The notes under the pieces are model-generated. The model was given only the letters and a program-made list of their open reading frames with translations. It did not search any database and had not been told where the DNA came from. From positions 6,937-70,936 of the forward strand of contig SVSK01000001.1 in the NCBI GenBank assembly GCA_015064345.1: a DNA stretch of 64,000 bases, given 5' to 3'. Every line of letters starts with the position of its first letter. Position 1 is the stretch's first letter. This stretch comes from Oscillospiraceae bacterium (GTDB lineage: Bacteria; Bacillota; Clostridia; Oscillospirales; CAG-272). Made by a program: the position numbers and the translations under genes. This document shows positions 5,745 through 15,079 of this stretch, in pieces.

Positions 5745-6557
5745 ATGAAAATCAACTCGAAAATAAAGCTTGTTTCATTGATACTTGCCCTTGTCATGGC
5801 GATCATTCCGCTCTCATCATGCTCTGACTCCGGTGGAGCGAAGAATGATGGAGAAGAGGAAAACAAGGTCACACTTGCAAGTCCGTCCATTGGCATTGGC
5901 AGACCAAGCCAAAGCGGCGACGGCCCGTCAAATGATCCTGCGGCCGATACAGGTATTGTGATCTGCATAGACCCGGGCCACGGATTCATGGATGGCGGCT
6001 GCGGAGAGGGAATTGAAGCGCTTGGCGGTGTTCTTGAAAAAGAGATCAATCTTGCAATAGCAAATATGCTTGATGAAGACCTCAGGCACATGGGCTACAC
6101 CACGATAGTGACCCACAACGGCAAGGACATTCCCTCGTGGGATACTAACAAAAACAACATTTTCAGCGCAAGCGAGAGAGTTGTTTACGTGAACACACTT
6201 GATATAGACTATCTGGTGTCTATTCACGTCAACTCAAACAGCGACACATCAATTTCCGGACTTTGGATCTGCTACGAGCAGAACGCAAGAAAGCAGAACG
6301 ATTGGTCTGAAAAGATCGCGCAGAGTATTTCATCCGCGATAACTGAAAACGGGCTTGACGTGGCGAAGAACGTGCTGAAAAGCGAGTATTCTCTTGCTCT
6401 TACAAGAGAGACATACGCCGCAGCTTCTCTCATTGAGATCGGCTTTGCGACAAATGTATCAGACGCGGCGAGAATGCTTGACCCAGAGTGGCAGAGCCTT
6501 CTTGCACAGTCTATAGCAGACGGTATTGACGACTATTTCAAAGGTGGCGATAATTAA
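5745..6557 (+). CDS. N-acetylmuramoyl-L-alanine amidase (Amidase_3 family), predicted lipoprotein
   Basis: 270-aa ORF. Signal peptide with lipobox LSSC. IDPGHG...H.N motif pattern of the CwlD/AmiC-type amidase_3 fold. Starts 1 nt after the rhaA stop. Confidence 0.85.
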   Translation: MKINSKIKLVSLILALVMAIIPLSSCSDSGGAKNDGEEENKVTLASPSIGIGRPSQSGDGPSNDPAADTGIVICIDPGHGFMDGGCGEGIEALGGVLEKEINLAIANMLDEDLRHMGYTTIVTHNGKDIPSWDTNKNNIFSASERVVYVNTLDIDYLVSIHVNSNSDTSISGLWICYEQNARKQNDWSEKIAQSISSAITENGLDVAKNVLKSEYSLALTRETYAAASLIEIGFATNVSDAARMLDPEWQSLLAQSIADGIDDYFKGGDN

Positions 6558-8602: not shown

Positions 8603-8641
8603 AACGCACCCGAGCAGAAATGTTCAGGTGCGTTGTTTTTT
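8603..8641. terminator. Intrinsic terminator shared by the convergent SIS operon and the P-type ATPase gene
   Basis: AACGCACC (8603-8610) pairs with GGTGCGTT (8627-8634) and is followed by a T-run. An A-rich left flank gives weaker function on the minus strand. Confidence 0.7.
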
Positions 8642-11396
8642 ATGCTTTACGCCGCCGTATCAGAGCAAAGACTGACTTCCTTATAGTATCAGCCGGGATG
8701 ACTGTCATGGCAAACAGAGAGCAGATGAGCAGCTCATGCCCGTCAAGGGGAACACAGCGGAATACCTCTCCGCCAAAATATATAATAAGAAGTTGAATCG
8801 CCGCAACGGCAGGCATAATTATGATAAAAGCTTTGTTCTTCAGGATGTTTGCGAAAATATTGATCCTTGCCGTGCGGGTACACATTGCAATTCCCACTCC
8901 CATGAACACGAAAAGGGCGAAGAACAGCGTAAGATGATAAATCTCACCGCCGCCGAACATATGCCGAATGTTCTCCGAGAGCAAGAAGAATATCGACAAA
9001 GCAACCGCATAGCCACCTGTCAGGAGAATTTGCCAAAGCATCGCGGGCGTAAGAATGTGCTCATTTCTCTTGACGGGGGACTGACGCATATATTCCCGAA
9101 GTGCAGGCTCTCCTGCAAAGGCAAGTGACCCAAGGGTGTCCATGATAATATTAACCCACAGCATCTGTATAACGGTGACGGGACTGTTAATGCCGAACAT
9201 CGTTCCGATTATCGACACGCCAACTGCGGCAAGGTTCATGGTTAGCTGGAAAGTGATGAATTTCCGAATACTCTGAAAGATCGTTCGCCCGAAAAGAACA
9301 GCCTTGGTGATGGAGGCAAAATTGTCGTCAGTTATCACGATATCACCTGCCTGGCGTGCAATATCCGTGCCGCTTCCCATGGCAAAGCCTACGTCCGCCG
9401 ATTTTAGCGCAGGCGCATCGTTGATTCCGTCACCTGTCATGCCCGTAATATGCCCGCTTGCTTTGGCTAATTTAACAAGCCTGCTCTTGTCAGAGGGAGT
9501 GACACGTGATATGACTCGCATTTGCGGCAGAAGTGAGATTACGTCCTCATCTGTCATGCCACGAAGAGTCTGCCCGTCCAGTATTACGTCACATCCGCTT
9601 GACACTGTGTCACGGATGGATGACGATTCTCCGAATGCTCTGTAACGCGATGAGAGTATTCCACATTCAACGCCAATACCTGCTGCAGTTTCGCTGTTGT
9701 CGCCGGTTATCATAACTACCTGTACTCCTGCCGACCGGCAGTCTTTGACAGCGTCAATTGCTTCCTTACGTATCTCATCGCGAATGATAAACAGGGATAC
9801 GAAGGTGAGGGGCGTAGCGGTGGATGGCGGGCTGCTTCGAAGATGGTCAAGTAATTCGGGGCTTCCTTCCGCATGAATCAGCACTCGGCACGACTTTTGC
9901 GCATAGTGTGATATCTTGTCTCGGATAGTTTGCCTTAATGCACCGCCAATGGGGAGAATATCGCCACAGCTGTTCATATACGAGGAGCATGCGGGGAGAA
10001 TATACTCTGCAGCACCGCGAATGTACAGACGGTTACCGTACCGTGCGGCGGCAAACTTGCGGGATGAGTCAAAAGGGATGATATCCTTTGATTCGCTTGT
10101 CTGGTGTGAGCTTTTTATATTGAGGAAATCGCACAGTGCTCGCTCGGTCTGATTGAATACAGCGGCGCAGGCTATACCACCGTTTTTCATGCTCTTTAGT
10201 TGTGGGGAGGGAAGAGATTTTGCTGTATCATATTCACCTTCAGCAGTAACAACTAAGCTTACGTTCAGCTTTCCCGTGGTGAGAGTACCTGTTTTATCGG
10301 TGAAGAGAATGTCCACCCCGCCTGCAGTCTCGATTCCCACAAGTCTTCTCACAAGCACGCCCGCCTTAAGCATACGCTTCATGTTGGATGACAGTACCAC
10401 CGTTATCATCATGGGCAGACCCTCGGGCACGGCTACGACAACGATGGATATTGCCATTGTCAGCGCCTGTATCAGCTCGGAGACTACCAGCCGCATATCT
10501 GCAAGTCGGATTAGCGCCACGGAAGCATTACACCCTGCGTCAAACCAGAATGCATCTGCAAGATGAACAGCAGCAACGATTGCAGCAGAAAGGTAACCTA
10601 TCTTCGATATCGTTTTTGCAAGATCTGATAGGCGGTTTTTCAGTGGACTGACATTTTCCTCATCGGCAAGCTCGGTGGCTATAGCACCATACATAGTGTT
10701 CTCACCGACGGCAAGTACCAGCATCAGCGCACTTCCCGAGACAATATGACTGCCCTTGAAGAGAGAAGTGCTGTTGCCTGTGGTGAGCCTGAAGTCGCAG
10801 CTGTTTCGCAGTGTGGCGACTGCTTTGCTGTCTACGGTTTTCTTGATGCTTTTGCTCTCGCCTGTCAATGGAGACTCGTCACACGCTACCTCGCCTTGAA
10901 GAAGAATACCGTCAGCGGGAACGGTGTCGCCCGGGTAGAGATACACAAGATCGTATTTTACAAGGTCTGACACGGCACAATCCACTGTCTCACCGTCACG
11001 GAGCACGTGGCACATGCAGTCCCCAAGAGTAGAGTACAGTTTGTCAAAGGAAGCCCCGGAGGAATATTCGGAAATTGTGGTGACAAGGGCGGAGATGAGC
11101 ACAGTTGCGGCGATTCCGATAGATTCTGCCCAGTTCATGTCGGAGAACATGAATGCGGTGTTTACAACGAGAGCGCATATGAGTATCTTTATTATCGGAT
11201 CGTTCAGATTTCTGAAAAACTGCCGTATAAAGCCTGCACGCTTGTGAGGCTTGAGTGTGTTTTTTCCGTGCTTCTCCCGCGATAACGATACCTCCTCGTG
11301 AGAGAGACCACAGGAAAGTGAGGGTATTCTCAGCTCTGATTCTTTTTTCTCGGTTTTTGGTGTTCTACCGTACTTGTGCTTGATGTTTTCGTTCAT
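8640..11396 (-). CDS. Cation-transporting P-type ATPase (P2, Ca2+-ATPase-like)
   Basis: 918-aa ORF. Phosphorylation motif DKTGTLT, TGES, MITGDN, hinge GDGINDAPAL, and the PEGL motif in TM4. Confidence 0.9.
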   Translation of the reverse strand: MNENIKHKYGRTPKTEKKESELRIPSLSCGLSHEEVSLSREKHGKNTLKPHKRAGFIRQFFRNLNDPIIKILICALVVNTAFMFSDMNWAESIGIAATVLISALVTTISEYSSGASFDKLYSTLGDCMCHVLRDGETVDCAVSDLVKYDLVYLYPGDTVPADGILLQGEVACDESPLTGESKSIKKTVDSKAVATLRNSCDFRLTTGNSTSLFKGSHIVSGSALMLVLAVGENTMYGAIATELADEENVSPLKNRLSDLAKTISKIGYLSAAIVAAVHLADAFWFDAGCNASVALIRLADMRLVVSELIQALTMAISIVVVAVPEGLPMMITVVLSSNMKRMLKAGVLVRRLVGIETAGGVDILFTDKTGTLTTGKLNVSLVVTAEGEYDTAKSLPSPQLKSMKNGGIACAAVFNQTERALCDFLNIKSSHQTSESKDIIPFDSSRKFAAARYGNRLYIRGAAEYILPACSSYMNSCGDILPIGGALRQTIRDKISHYAQKSCRVLIHAEGSPELLDHLRSSPPSTATPLTFVSLFIIRDEIRKEAIDAVKDCRSAGVQVVMITGDNSETAAGIGVECGILSSRYRAFGESSSIRDTVSSGCDVILDGQTLRGMTDEDVISLLPQMRVISRVTPSDKSRLVKLAKASGHITGMTGDGINDAPALKSADVGFAMGSGTDIARQAGDIVITDDNFASITKAVLFGRTIFQSIRKFITFQLTMNLAAVGVSIIGTMFGINSPVTVIQMLWVNIIMDTLGSLAFAGEPALREYMRQSPVKRNEHILTPAMLWQILLTGGYAVALSIFFLLSENIRHMFGGGEIYHLTLFFALFVFMGVGIAMCTRTARINIFANILKNKAFIIIMPAVAAIQLLIIYFGGEVFRCVPLDGHELLICSLFAMTVIPADTIRKSVFALIRRRKA

Positions 11397-11538
11397 TTTG
11401 CATACCTGCCACTTCTTATTCTGGTCTATTATATTCGCCTGTGCGGTGATTTAGGAATAAATGTACTCACAAGGCAGGTTGGTGATAAAATAATATCACT
11501 CGAGAATATCAAAATCCTCAATAATTTCATGTCGCCTA

Positions 11539-11567
11539 TTGACTTTGCGGTAAAATAATGCTATAAT
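11539..11567 (+). promoter_or_regulatory. Sigma-A promoter of the SCIFF locus (TTGACT-17-TATAAT)
   Basis: TTGACT at 11539-11544, 17-nt spacer, TATAAT at 11562-11567, 40 nt upstream of the scfA ATG. Confidence 0.65.
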
Positions 11568-11606
11568 ACATTGTAATTATGATAATCATACGGAGGATAA
11601 TCTATT

Positions 11607-11765
11607 ATGAAGCATATCAAGACACTTGAAACTCGTAATCTCTGCGACAGCGCAAAGAACGGCGGCTGCGGCGAATGCCAGACATCTTGCCAGTCCGCTT
11701 GCAAGACCAGCTGCGGTATTGCTAATCAGAAGTGCGAAAGCAAGGATAAGAAGGCAAGCAAGTAA
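11607..11765 (+). CDS. scfA: Six-cysteine ranthipeptide SCIFF precursor (52 aa)
   Basis: Own translation: MKHIKTLETRNLCDSAKNGGCGECQTSCQSACKTSCGIANQKCESKDKKASK. GGAGG at 11592-11596. The core GGCGECQTSCQSACKTSC is the SCIFF family signature. It lies directly upstream of the SCIFF maturase. Too short for the ORF track. Confidence 0.9.
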   Translation: MKHIKTLETRNLCDSAKNGGCGECQTSCQSACKTSCGIANQKCESKDKKASK

Positions 11766-11780
11766 TCCATAAAATCGAAG

Positions 11781-11815
11781 TGCCGCCGTATTACTACATA
11801 TGGCGGCATTTTTAT
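11781..11815 (+). terminator. Intrinsic hairpin plus T-run between precursor and maturase (probable leaky terminator/attenuator)
   Basis: TGCCGCC (11781-11787) pairs with GGCGGCA (11802-11808), followed by TTTTTAT. The maturase RBS AGGAG is at 11825-11829. Confidence 0.65.
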
Positions 11816-11838
11816 CTGTATAAAAGGAGTACATAACA

Positions 11839-13224
11839 ATGATACATCAGTATCAGCTGGGCGGATATAATATCGTGTTGGACATTTGCTCCGGTTCTGT
11901 TCACGTTGTGGACGAGGTGGCGTACGATATTATCGCCATGTTTGAAAATAATGACCGCGATGCTGTAGTTGCCGCTATAAGAGAAAAATATGCGGGACGT
12001 GATGACATTACCGCGGAGGATATAGACGAATGCTACGATCAGGTGCTCTCGCTCAAGGAAAGCGGAAAGCTGTTTGCGCCGGATACCTTTGAGCCTATGG
12101 CGGGTGAGCTGAAACAGAAAACGTCAGGCGTAGTAAAGGCACTTTGTCTGCACGTTGCACACACCTGTAACCTTAACTGCGAATATTGCTTTGCAAGTCA
12201 GGGTAAGTATCACGGCGACCGTGCTGTAATGAGTCTTGAAGTCGGTAAGCGTGCTATGGATTTTCTTATCGAGAACTCCGGTACGCGCCACAATCTTGAG
12301 GTGGACTTCTTTGGCGGTGAGCCGCTGATGAACTTTGAGATGCTGAAGGAGCTTGTTGCTTACTGCCGCAGTATCGAGAAAGAAAAGGGCAAGAACTTCC
12401 GCTTCACCCTCACAACAAACGGACTGCTTATTGATGACGACGTAATAGATTTTGCCAACCGCGAGTGCAGCAACGTAGTCCTCAGTCTCGACGGACGCAA
12501 AGAGATACACGACAGATACCGCGTTGACTATGCGGGTAACGGAAGCTGGGAGAAGATCGTACCCAAGTTCCAAAAGCTCGTGGAAGCACGCGGCGGTAAG
12601 GATTACTATATGCGCGGCACGTTTACACATGCAAATCCTGATTTTCTTAAGGATATTGAGGTAATGCTCGATCTGGGATTTACGGAGCTTAGCATGGAGC
12701 CTGTTGTTTGCGCCGCAGGTGATCCGTCAGAGCTTACAGAAGAGGATCTGCCTATCGTTCTCGACCAGTACGAAAAGCTGGCAGAGCTTATGATCAAGCG
12801 CGACGGAGAGGGAAGACCCTTTACGTTCTACCACTATATGATCGACCTAACCGGCGGTCCTTGCATCTACAAGCGTATCTCCGGATGCGGCTCGGGAACA
12901 GAATACATGGCGGTTACACCTTGGGGCGACCTTTATCCCTGCCACCAGTTCGTTGGTGAAGAAAAGTTCAAGCTTGGTGATATTTGGAACGGCGTTACGG
13001 GTACAGCTATCCAGGACGAGTTCTGCGCATGCAACGTGTACGCGAGACCCGAATGCCGTGATTGCTGGGCAAGACTGTATTGCTCGGGCGGATGTGCTGC
13101 CAATGCGTACCACTCCACGGGTTCGGTAACAGGTGTATATAAATACGGATGCGAGCTGTTCAAGAAGAGAATGGAATGCGCCATCATGGTACAAGTTCAC
13201 CGCATGATGGGCGAGGACGAGTGA
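11839..13224 (+). CDS. scfB: Thioether cross-link-forming SCIFF peptide maturase (radical SAM/SPASM)
   Basis: 461-aa ORF. N-terminus MIHQYQLGGYNIVLD..SG.VHVVD is typical of the family. rSAM cluster CNLNCEYC. C-terminal SPASM cysteines (CRDCWARLYCSGGC). Confidence 0.92.
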   Translation: MIHQYQLGGYNIVLDICSGSVHVVDEVAYDIIAMFENNDRDAVVAAIREKYAGRDDITAEDIDECYDQVLSLKESGKLFAPDTFEPMAGELKQKTSGVVKALCLHVAHTCNLNCEYCFASQGKYHGDRAVMSLEVGKRAMDFLIENSGTRHNLEVDFFGGEPLMNFEMLKELVAYCRSIEKEKGKNFRFTLTTNGLLIDDDVIDFANRECSNVVLSLDGRKEIHDRYRVDYAGNGSWEKIVPKFQKLVEARGGKDYYMRGTFTHANPDFLKDIEVMLDLGFTELSMEPVVCAAGDPSELTEEDLPIVLDQYEKLAELMIKRDGEGRPFTFYHYMIDLTGGPCIYKRISGCGSGTEYMAVTPWGDLYPCHQFVGEEKFKLGDIWNGVTGTAIQDEFCACNVYARPECRDCWARLYCSGGCAANAYHSTGSVTGVYKYGCELFKKRMECAIMVQVHRMMGEDE

Positions 13225-14576
13225 TGGACACTCCCATAGTTGATTTTGTTCGCAGGTATGCTGACAGCGAGACCTTGCGACTTCACATGCCCGGTCACAA
13301 AGGCGTGAACTTTCTTGGGGTCGAGACTCTTGACATAACTGAAATACAGGGTGCGGACAGCCTTTACGAAGCGGAAGAGATCATTCGCGAGAGTGAGCGT
13401 AACGCGGGACAGCTGTTTGGTGCGAACACCTTTTATTCCACTGAGGGATCATCGCTGTGTATCCGTGCAATGCTGTATCTTGCAGTGCTGTACGCGAGAG
13501 AACATGGCAGACGTCCTTTAATTGCGGCAGGTAGAAACGCACATAAAACATTCATCAGCGCCGCCGCACTACTTGACTTTGACGTAATGTGGCTGTATCC
13601 CGAATCCGGGCAGAGCTATCTTTCCGTAAGTGTCAGCGGTGAAGATATAGAAAACACGCTGAAAAACGCAGACGAGATTCCGACTGCCGTATATCTTACC
13701 AGTCCTGACTATCTCGGAAACACAGTAGACATCGCGGGGATAGCAGAGGTTTGCCACAGGTACGGTGTTCTTCTCCTTGTTGACAATGCTCACGGCGCAT
13801 ATCTGAAGTTTTTGCCAGAGTCACGTCACCCCATCGACCTCGGTGCGGATATGTGCTGCGACTCCGCTCACAAAACTCTTCCTGTTCTGACAGGCGGCGG
13901 ATATTTGCATATATCAAAGCATGCCGATCCAATGTTCAAGGCTGACGCGAAAAATGCCATGGCACTCTTCGGCTCAACAAGTCCGTCATATCTTATTTTG
14001 CAGTCCCTCGATCTTGCAAATAAATACATCTCTGGCGGTTATCCGGAACGCTTGGCGAATTATATCGCGAAAATCGACTGCGAAAAAGAGAAAATCACAT
14101 CACTTGGATACACTCTCATAGGAAGCGAGCCGCTGAAACTGACTATTGCAACCAAATCCTACGGCTACAGAGGATACGAGCTGGCACAGCTTTTGCGGGA
14201 GCGGGGTATCGAATGTGAGTTTTCCGACCGCGACTTCTGCGTGATGATGCTGACACCCGAGACAGGGGAGGCTGGATTGTCGCGGTTGGTCAGAGCACTT
14301 TCCGATATTCAGAAAAAAGAGAAAATAGATGAGATACCACCTGTTATTGCAAAAGCAGAGCGGGTTATGACAGTCAGAAACGCGACTTTGAGCTGTTCGG
14401 AGATTATCCCTGCCTCTGAATCACTTGGAAGAATACTGGCGAGTGCAACTGTCGGATGCCCACCTGCCGTGCCGATTTTGGTGTGCGGTGAGCGAATAAA
14501 TGAAGCGGCTGTGCGCGCGTTTGAGTATTATGGAATTGAAAAAGTTGCTGTTGTGACTGAAGAGGTGTGCAAATGA
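13224..14576 (+). CDS. PLP-dependent Orn/Lys/Arg decarboxylase-family enzyme (YaaO-like)
   Basis: The ATG at 13224 overlaps the scfB TGA (13222-13224). MDTPIVDFVRRY...LHMPGHKG N-terminus. PLP lysine motif DSAHKTLP. The track ORF start at 13149 is an upstream extension inside scfB. Confidence 0.85.
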   Translation: MDTPIVDFVRRYADSETLRLHMPGHKGVNFLGVETLDITEIQGADSLYEAEEIIRESERNAGQLFGANTFYSTEGSSLCIRAMLYLAVLYAREHGRRPLIAAGRNAHKTFISAAALLDFDVMWLYPESGQSYLSVSVSGEDIENTLKNADEIPTAVYLTSPDYLGNTVDIAGIAEVCHRYGVLLLVDNAHGAYLKFLPESRHPIDLGADMCCDSAHKTLPVLTGGGYLHISKHADPMFKADAKNAMALFGSTSPSYLILQSLDLANKYISGGYPERLANYIAKIDCEKEKITSLGYTLIGSEPLKLTIATKSYGYRGYELAQLLRERGIECEFSDRDFCVMMLTPETGEAGLSRLVRALSDIQKKEKIDEIPPVIAKAERVMTVRNATLSCSEIIPASESLGRILASATVGCPPAVPILVCGERINEAAVRAFEYYGIEKVAVVTEEVCK

Positions 14577-15079
14577 ACATTCAAGCAATAGTTTACACTT
14601 CAAACACAGGATATACCGCTGAATACGCGAGACTCCTTGGTGAGAAAACGGGACTGCCTGTGTACTCTCTTGAGGAAGCAAAGCAGAATTTGACGGAAAG
14701 AACAGAAATCGTTTACCTTGGTTGGCTTATGGCGAGTATGGTAAAGGGTTACGGCGAAGCTTCAAAGCTGTACAACATATCGCTGGTGTGCGGTGTGTGC
14801 CTTGGGACCAGCGGATCACAGATGCCAGAGGTGCGTAAGATGAACAAGTTACCAAAGGACTTGCCGCTGTTCACTCTGCAGGGCGGATTTGACATGAACA
14901 AGCTCCGCGGAATGAACAAGTTTATGATGAAGATCATGAAAAAGATCCTCACAAGGCAGATAAACGGCAAGGAAGAGCAAACCGAGAATGATCGCGCTAT
15001 TCTTCATATGCTTAACGAAGGCGGAAGCTGTGTGAGCGAAGAAAACCTTGCGCCGGTGATCGAGTTAATTAATGAATAA
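14573..15079 (+). CDS. Flavodoxin-like domain protein
   Basis: The ATG at 14573 overlaps the upstream TGA (14574-14576). N-terminal FMN phosphate-loop-like YTSNTGYT. About 168 aa. The track start at 14567 is a GTG. Confidence 0.7.
   Translation: MNIQAIVYTSNTGYTAEYARLLGEKTGLPVYSLEEAKQNLTERTEIVYLGWLMASMVKGYGEASKLYNISLVCGVCLGTSGSQMPEVRKMNKLPKDLPLFTLQGGFDMNKLRGMNKFMMKIMKKILTRQINGKEEQTENDRAILHMLNEGGSCVSEENLAPVIELINE

Follow-up and report, generated by a model that had tools for sequence, protein, structure and literature searches.

A probable scfAB operon for a SCIFF ranthipeptide and its recurrent PLP-enzyme neighbour in an Oscillospiraceae bacterium

The window considered here, a stretch of 64,000 nucleotides from an Oscillospiraceae bacterium that was analysed as a whole, carries a run of plus-strand genes which opens with a short precursor gene, scfA, and continues with the gene of its putative maturase, scfB. 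Upstream of scfA a divergent gene is found, and an antisense reading frame covers scfA on the minus strand. The features, with the evidence on which each assignment rests, are as follows:

8640 to 11396, minus strand: PMCA-type calcium P-type ATPase, divergent upstream gene (TIGR01517, 550 bits, cutoff 507)
11539 to 11567, plus strand: promoter of scfA, sigma-A type, with TTGACT and TATAAT separated by 17 nt and an extended -10 TG (11 matches among the 12 consensus positions)
11586 to 11834, minus strand: antisense ORF of 82 amino acids, almost certainly a non-coding artefact (no family match, pattern of codon variation)
11592 to 11596, plus strand: Shine-Dalgarno sequence GGAGG, 10 nt 5' of the scfA ATG (read from the sequence)
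11607 to 11765, plus strand: scfA, 52-amino-acid SCIFF ranthipeptide precursor (TIGR03973, PF13165, substitutions by codon position)
11777 to 11812, plus strand: intrinsic terminator or attenuator hairpin in the scfA-scfB spacer (folding, conservation)
11839 to 13224, plus strand: scfB, 461-amino-acid radical SAM/SPASM thioether-forming SCIFF maturase, orthologue of CteB (TIGR03974, match to 5WGG)
13224 to 14576, plus strand: YaaO-like PLP enzyme of 450 amino acids, Orn/Lys/Arg decarboxylase family, candidate third component (PF01276, 105.7 bits)
14573 to 15079, plus strand: flavodoxin-like ORF of 168 amino acids, last of the plus-strand run (Flavodoxin_5, 25.5 bits, cutoff 27)

An earlier note, made from the letters of the DNA, had read a SCIFF-type ranthipeptide precursor at this place, and its frame was recovered exactly, with GGAGG at 11592-11596, the ATG at 11607-11609, 52 codons and the TAA stop at 11763-11765, all on the plus strand; the translation of 11607..11765 agrees letter for letter (MKHIKTLETRNLCDSAKNGGCGECQTSCQSACKTSCGIANQKCESKDKKASK). 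The search with the model TIGR03973 ('six-cysteine ranthipeptide SCIFF') that had been proposed there places ScfA well over the curated cutoff (81.4 bits against 50, E = 3e-23, model positions 1-43 of 43), and PF13165 gives 83 bits against a cutoff of 27 (E = 1e-23); together with the TIGR03974 maturase encoded directly 3', these matches bear out the family assignment. For ScfA the protein collection contains 5,838 homologues, and scfA is the sole ORF with the SCIFF cysteine motif in the whole 64 kb. Its cysteines are located at position 13, in the leader, and at positions 21, 24, 28, 32, 36 and 43, such that the peptide of 52 residues (the SCIFF class comprises about 45-50) combines the six cysteines of the C-terminal part with the core GGCGECQTSCQSACKTSC, which is identical to the invariant columns in alignments of the homologues. 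By analogy with CteA, residues 1-18 would form the leader and the core would start at residue 19. GenBank holds an identical 52-residue protein, MBE6625567.1, 'six-cysteine peptide SCIFF [Ruminococcaceae bacterium]', and under the adjacent accession MBE6625568.1 the maturase, named as SCIFF maturase. The occurrence of SCIFF in Clostridia fits, with the identical protein recorded from a Ruminococcaceae/Oscillospiraceae MAG and the nearest orthologous loci in MAGs of Oscillospiraceae, Acutalibacteraceae and Ruminococcus. The pairing of scfA with a TIGR03974 maturase is present in 79 of 80 related loci. The streptococcal 'subcutaneous fitness' genes that share the names scfA and scfB are unrelated to this pair. 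The locus is thus very probably an scfA-scfB ranthipeptide operon, and the pair is an ordinary, already catalogued SCIFF system that standard annotation names already: the call is right but ordinary, because the family is curated and the exact peptide and its maturase carry these names in GenBank.

A sactipeptide reading was considered and rejected, as the RumMC maturase model reaches only 126 bits on ScfB (cutoff 720). In SCIFF products the links go to C-gamma or C-beta, and these peptides have been reclassified out of the sactipeptides (PMC8326336, PMC8172795). In the homologue collection several unusual entries were encountered. Three metagenome proteins of 91-92 residues (P0017, P0018, P0137) each hold two full SCIFF units in tandem within a single ORF, and a further one of 74 residues (P0019) looks like a partial internal SCIFF duplication; all four are encoded elsewhere than in the window. 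Many ENA calls of SCIFF peptides overrun the normal stop into the terminator hairpin, with tails such as 'ESAKESKYLHTPKCRRSRRHFF…' and 'ESKDKSSYLHIRKCRR…', sometimes with Tyr at the stop position, and their apparent length is thereby inflated to 60-100 residues; these overlong calls look as if another genetic code had been used in gene calling, or like artefacts of read-through of some other kind.

The expression signals around scfA recur among its relatives. A promoter with at least 10 of 12 consensus positions was found 30-96 nt (median 36) 5' of the scfA ATG in 66 of 80 orthologous loci (61 of these 66 have the TG element), and a Shine-Dalgarno-like motif within 20 nt upstream of scfA in 76 of the 80. 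The hairpin in the 73-nt spacer between scfA and scfB comprises 15 bp, with a GC-rich core at 11781-11808 and a T-tract at 11809-11813; its folding energy of -23.9 kcal/mol (z = -4.98) was equalled in 0 of 200 shuffles. A consensus terminator scan of 11300-12000 returned no hit and missed hairpin and T-tract, which were found by folding and confirmed in relatives: 68 of the 80 loci have a GC-rich hairpin with a T-run behind it no more than 90 nt from the scfA stop, and the left arms occur in 58 distinct sequences, so that structure was kept rather than sequence. A search of 11000-13500 against Rfam at E values up to 1 gave no match, so that riboswitches and leader RNAs of known families are absent. 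Between the hairpin and scfB the promoter scan found no promoter-like site, which suggests that scfB is expressed via read-through of the terminator and that the precursor message exceeds the maturase message. A conserved terminator placed between precursor and maturase points to a built-in control of the scfA:scfB ratio.

The minus-strand ORF at 11586..11834 (82 amino acids), which the earlier note had set aside as an antisense artefact, exists and spans the entire scfA gene. One may ask whether the true gene is this ORF, with the SCIFF-like frame as a coincidence, as the ORF is longer than scfA, is listed in place of the SCIFF by one public metagenome annotation (L091), and corresponds in relatives to an in-phase antisense frame that stays open over scfA in 66 of 80 loci. 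The openness finds a simple explanation in scfA itself, which lacks in-phase TTA, CTA and TCA codons, and the ORF has no match in either Pfam or NCBIfam. A frame test over 80 orthologous loci from named genomes, in which non-majority bases were counted over codons 1-44, gave 251, 78 and 1184 substitutions at the first, second and third codon position of scfA, respectively. From this pattern it follows that the plus frame is under purifying selection; the most variable sense position 3 is position 1 of the antisense codons, where the variation would alter an antisense protein. Promoter, Shine-Dalgarno sequence and terminator all belong to the plus strand, and all are conserved. A minus-strand gene is therefore exceedingly improbable, and the artefact reading is supported by the missing family match, the distribution of variation over the codon positions of the plus frame and the signals on that strand. 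The description of scfA as a hidden gene holds in part: it was missed by one of three public gene calls, but it is named in GenBank and the 52-residue SCIFF is listed by the other two. In the call that missed it (L091), the antisense ORF of 82 residues appears at 5748..5996 on the minus strand, equivalent to 11586..11834 of the window, and the SCIFF is omitted. Short RiPP precursor genes can lose to a longer antisense ORF in automatic annotation, and L091 provides a concrete case.

The maturase gene scfB starts 73 nt downstream of scfA on the same strand, in agreement with the order of the two genes in the earlier note, and is preceded by its own Shine-Dalgarno sequence (AAGGAG, 11824-11829). 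On TIGR03974 ('thioether cross-link-forming SCIFF peptide maturase', cutoff 425) ScfB reaches 758.6 bits, and it remains below the cutoff of 855 on NF040492, the 'not_ScfB' exception model for ScfB-related orphans (554.6 bits); it aligns with CteB (PDB 5WGG_A) over the full length with 536 bits. The ten cluster-ligating cysteines of CteB, as given in PMC10177961, are all conserved in ScfB. The radical SAM cluster would be held by Cys110, Cys114 and Cys117 (CX3CX2C, in HTCNLNCEYC; C104, C108 and C111 in CteB), the first auxiliary cluster (AC1) with its open site by Cys350, Cys368 and Cys419 (C344, C362 and C413), and the second auxiliary cluster (AC2) by Cys406, Cys409, Cys415 and Cys438 (C400, C403, C409 and C432). 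Judged by these residues, ScfB is a radical SAM/SPASM enzyme of the CteB type, and the sites for its three Fe-S clusters are all intact. The Pfam SPASM match is weak (18.6 bits, cutoff 21.5); residues 1-90 align with the N-terminus of CteB, and the PqqD-like Pfam match in this region is weak as well (16.7 bits, cutoff 23.4).

Two peculiarities of the peptide had been pointed out in the earlier note, a seventh cysteine and a lysine-rich tail, and the alignment proposed there showed that Cys13 and a short Lys/Glu tail are both shared among related genomes. Cys13 is indeed present and located in the leader, but it is a trait of the clade (128 of 130 close homologues, 77 of 79 related genomes). 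It is encoded by TGC in 61 and TGT in 17 cases, in proportions that resemble those of the canonical cysteine positions; as both codons are used in this way, Cys13 is evidently maintained within the clade of the window. In a more diverse set, position 13 is occupied by Cys (105), Ala (18) or Lys (5), and otherwise by Glu, Asn, Ser, Val, Arg or Gln. The leader of CteA has been defined as residues 1-18 (PMC6231123), which puts Cys13 in the leader, so that it would be absent from the product if the leader is removed. With regard to the tail, ESKDKKASK of the window peptide (9 residues, net +2) is indeed among the longest and most basic, but it lies inside the range of 80 sequences, and short tails of mixed Lys and Glu that close with Lys are usual. 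In these 80 sequences the tail always begins with Glu and has a mean length of 6.1 residues, with 28% Lys and 28% Glu; in the clade of the window, 67 of 80 peptides end in Lys. A seventh cysteine was also observed in a Ruminococcus bromii-type clade, located in the tail instead of at position 13 (…NQQCEKCLEK, …CEKCMSEK, …CEKCK; loci L130, L136, L145, L148, L150, L151, L156, L159, L160, L163 and L165). The extra cysteine, at position 13 on the one hand and in the tail on the other, thus arose at least twice at different places.

The position of the thioether cross-link has been disputed even for CteA. According to the accounts in PMC8326336 and PMC8172795, a link between Cys32 and Thr37 was found in vitro (Bruender 2016, Grove 2017), and a link from Cys32 to the gamma carbon of Thr34 was found upon co-expression in E. 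coli (Hudson 2019), such that Thr37 in vitro stands against Thr34 in vivo. ScfA possesses Cys32 and Thr34 (11706-11708), and position 37 (11715-11717) is occupied by Gly, so that only the link to Thr34 is possible in this peptide. All of 140 diverse SCIFF motifs (P0137-P0276) carry Thr34; at position 37, the acceptor described at first for CteA and Tte1186a, 136 have Gly and 4 have Thr. This share of Gly37 is biased upward since the sample was ranked on resemblance to the query; Thr34 is kept without exception in Gly37 and Thr37 types alike. As Thr34 is invariant and Thr37 rare, the alignments favour Cys32-Thr34 as the general SCIFF cross-link.

Formation of a thioether by ScfB on ScfA is predicted from the systems CteB/CteA and Tte1186/Tte1186a. 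In CteB, the leader of CteA docks on the RRE domain as an added beta-strand, and a cysteine of the substrate is bound at an open iron site of the first auxiliary cluster (PMC6231123); for Tte1186, selenium EXAFS located the donor residue on the first auxiliary cluster (PMC10177961). Along these lines, the leader of ScfA (residues 1-18) would bind the predicted N-terminal RRE domain of ScfB as a beta-strand. The radical SAM cluster would split SAM into the 5'-deoxyadenosyl radical, which would take a hydrogen from the acceptor residue, which here would have to be Thr34, given the Gly at position 37; the thiolate of Cys32, held at the open iron site of AC1, would then make the non-alpha thioether. 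As scfB and the genes that follow it seem to lack a separate promoter, their transcription would depend entirely on read-through of the terminator, giving many precursor transcripts per maturase transcript. The least certain steps of this scheme are that the product may be a regulatory, quorum-sensing-like peptide, as reported in solventogenic clostridia, and that in this lineage the YaaO-like PLP enzyme, whose gene is translationally coupled, may be involved.

The gene of this PLP enzyme begins with an ATG that overlaps the TGA of scfB by 1 nt (TGATG, 13222-13226). The protein belongs to the Pfam family OKR_DC_1 (PF01276), and its best solved relative is 2X3L (110 bits, full length). The PLP gene is located directly 3' of scfB in 63 of the 66 related genomes whose sequence extends far enough, and at most loci of the clade the two genes share 1 or 4 nt or the PLP gene begins within 12 nt of scfB. 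When all ORFs of 79 related loci were clustered, only scfB and the PLP enzyme recurred, and the other neighbours varied by genome; neither the calcium ATPase nor the SIS-domain gene, the flavodoxin-like ORF or gdh is conserved beside scfAB in the relatives. The flavodoxin-like ORF, whose start codon overlaps the PLP stop codon (ATGA, 14573-14576), has no homologue in the 80 related loci and is specific to the source organism; reduction of the radical SAM cluster by a flavodoxin would be conceivable in principle. The linkage of the PLP gene was followed in the window (13224..14576) and in the loci L001-L080, L082 and L094-L173; for several divergent SCIFF types (L081, L083, L084 and L088-L090) the contigs ended too close to scfAB for the flanking genes to be seen. 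A second sample of 78 metagenome loci, picked with a query other than of the Cys13 type, gave the following distribution by residues 13 and 37 of the peptide:

Cys13/Gly37: PLP gene after scfB in 15, before scfA (same strand) in 0, absent in 2
Ala13/Gly37: after scfB in 1 (and in 1 more downstream on the opposite strand), before scfA in 15, absent in 2
Lys13/Gly37: after scfB in 1, before scfA in 8, absent in 3
Gln13 and Ser13/Gly37: after scfB in 0, before scfA in 3, absent in 0
Lys13/Thr37: after scfB in 0, before scfA in 0, absent in 3

The other 22 loci of this sample were mostly too short, and one Asn13/Gly37 locus among them has the PLP gene after scfB. The gene is also absent from one further Thr37 locus with the order DUF3792-scfA-scfB-secD-secF. 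The upstream copies share 27-36% identity with the enzyme of the window and are full-length OKR_DC_1 proteins with the motifs HMPGHK and HKTLP. By the names of the sources, Cys13 peptides belong to Oscillospiraceae and Acutalibacteraceae, Ala13 to Subdoligranulum and Gemmiger, Lys13/Gly37 to Ruminococcus bromii and relatives, and Thr37 to Lachnospiraceae. The linkage of PLP gene and scfAB is a trait of Oscillospiraceae-type lineages that survived changes in gene order and deep divergence; it goes with the Gly37 form of ScfA and is missing from the sampled Thr37 (CteA-like) loci. A C-terminal lysine was considered as a correlate of the PLP enzyme and discarded, as Thr37-type peptides without the enzyme often end in Lys too.

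SCIFF has been described as a two-gene cluster (PMC11063209), and no report of a partnership between a PLP enzyme and scfAB was found in the literature searched. A gene order inherited without any functional tie, next to a SCIFF system that is an ordinary two-gene unit as in the literature (PMC11063209), is given slightly better than an even chance: Thr37-type loci of Lachnospiraceae and others do without the PLP gene, and CteB and Tte1186 function alone in vitro and in E. coli (PMC8326336, PMC8172795). The enzyme family is widespread, moreover. Its closest solved member, 2X3L, is presumably a protein of Staphylococcus aureus and, if this origin is right, comes from beyond the Clostridia, to which SCIFF is confined according to the literature (PMC8326336). 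Against mere synteny speaks that the adjacency is kept in 63 of 66 genomes while every other neighbour differs, that it outlasts both a rearrangement, with the PLP gene on either side of the scfAB pair, and sequence divergence down to about 30% identity, and that PLP gene and scfB overlap or nearly touch at most loci in the clade of the window. On balance a functional link falls somewhat short of an even chance, and a direct action of the PLP enzyme on the peptide is less probable still; the enzyme might act on the peptide, for example on the usually C-terminal lysine, or might provide or use up a small molecule of the pathway. That SCIFF is a three-component system in Oscillospiraceae- and Ruminococcaceae-type bacteria, with the YaaO-like enzyme as its third member, is offered as a tentative proposal that is rather unlikely to hold. 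The persistent linkage nevertheless provides a concrete and testable handle on the role of SCIFF in one order.

As to this role, the earlier statement that the physiological function of SCIFF peptides is still unknown goes too far, as a role of the quorum-sensing type has been described for solventogenic clostridia (Chen et al. 2020, as presented in PMC8102284 and PMC8326336). According to the same sources, disruption of a pair of the scfAB type in C. beijerinckii turned sporulation genes down and agr up, and Chen et al. read this phenotype as quorum sensing. Near scfAB, no conserved gene for an exporter, a leader protease or a receptor or sensor was detected in about 160 loci, which fits a classical secreted signal poorly, and an intracellular role was therefore kept as an alternative. 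ScfA would in that case be a cysteine-rich peptide that is not secreted, for instance metal- or Fe-S-binding or redox-active, and in need of one thioether staple, and the changes in the transcriptome of knock-outs would be indirect. In addition to the missing transporter, protease and sensor genes, it agrees with such a role that ranthipeptide clusters are near-universal in Clostridia with at most one per species (bioRxiv 10.1101/2025.02.12.637840; PMC11063209), that the scfA promoter is of a near-consensus housekeeping type, that at least five cysteines besides the donor are invariant in SCIFFs, and that the broad distribution of SCIFF speaks against an antimicrobial role (PMC8326336). The knock-out phenotypes as taken by Chen et al. 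point the other way, and a leader that looks cleavable and is recognized through an RRE is typical for exported RiPPs; metal binding, on its part, is hypothetical. An intracellular function is, all in all, conceivable though doubtful.

Among the characterized relatives, PapA/PapB (freyrasin) from Paenibacillus polymyxa is a ranthipeptide system with a homologous radical SAM/SPASM enzyme. PapB introduces six Cys-Asp C-beta links in CX3D motifs (PMC8326336, PMC10177961), whereas ScfA has no CX3D motif, and on the PapB model ScfB of the window stays below the cutoff (267 bits, cutoff 340). The maturase of quinohemoprotein amine dehydrogenase, QhpD, is a related radical SAM/SPASM enzyme that forms non-alpha thioethers and is reported as the nearest non-RiPP relative of SCIFF maturases; its substrate is a protein subunit, in contrast to the small, leader-bearing peptides of the ScfB class, and ScfB reaches 262.7 bits on the QhpD model (cutoff 453). 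The PLP enzyme of the window shares with the YaaO-type protein 2X3L the motifs HxPGHK and S-x-HKTLP; 2X3L is an uncharacterised 'Orn/Lys/Arg decarboxylase family protein', and the suggested tie of its family to a ranthipeptide is drawn from gene neighbourhood alone.

Closer to the window is Tte1186a/Tte1186 from Caldanaerobacter subterraneus, a thermophile of another order, which belongs to the same SCIFF and ScfB families. Tte1186a obtains one Cys-to-Thr thioether, with the donor cysteine bound to the first auxiliary cluster (PMC10177961); the peptide is of the Thr37 type as reported, and it is not known to have a Cys13. The closest counterpart is CteA/CteB (thermocellin) from Clostridium thermocellum (PDB 5WGG and 5WHY), whose maturase matches ScfB over the full length with the cysteines of the radical SAM cluster, AC1 and AC2 conserved. 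CteA and ScfA are alike in length class, in the cysteines 21, 24, 28, 32, 36 and 43, in the core GGCGECQTSCQSACKTSC and in Thr34, and the CteA leader aligns with ScfA over residues 1-21. The two peptides differ at position 13, with Cys in ScfA and Lys in CteA, and at position 37, where the Thr of CteA-type peptides is replaced by Gly in ScfA, so that the link reported first, Cys32-Thr37, cannot form. The PLP neighbour present in the window is absent at the sampled loci of the Thr37 type.
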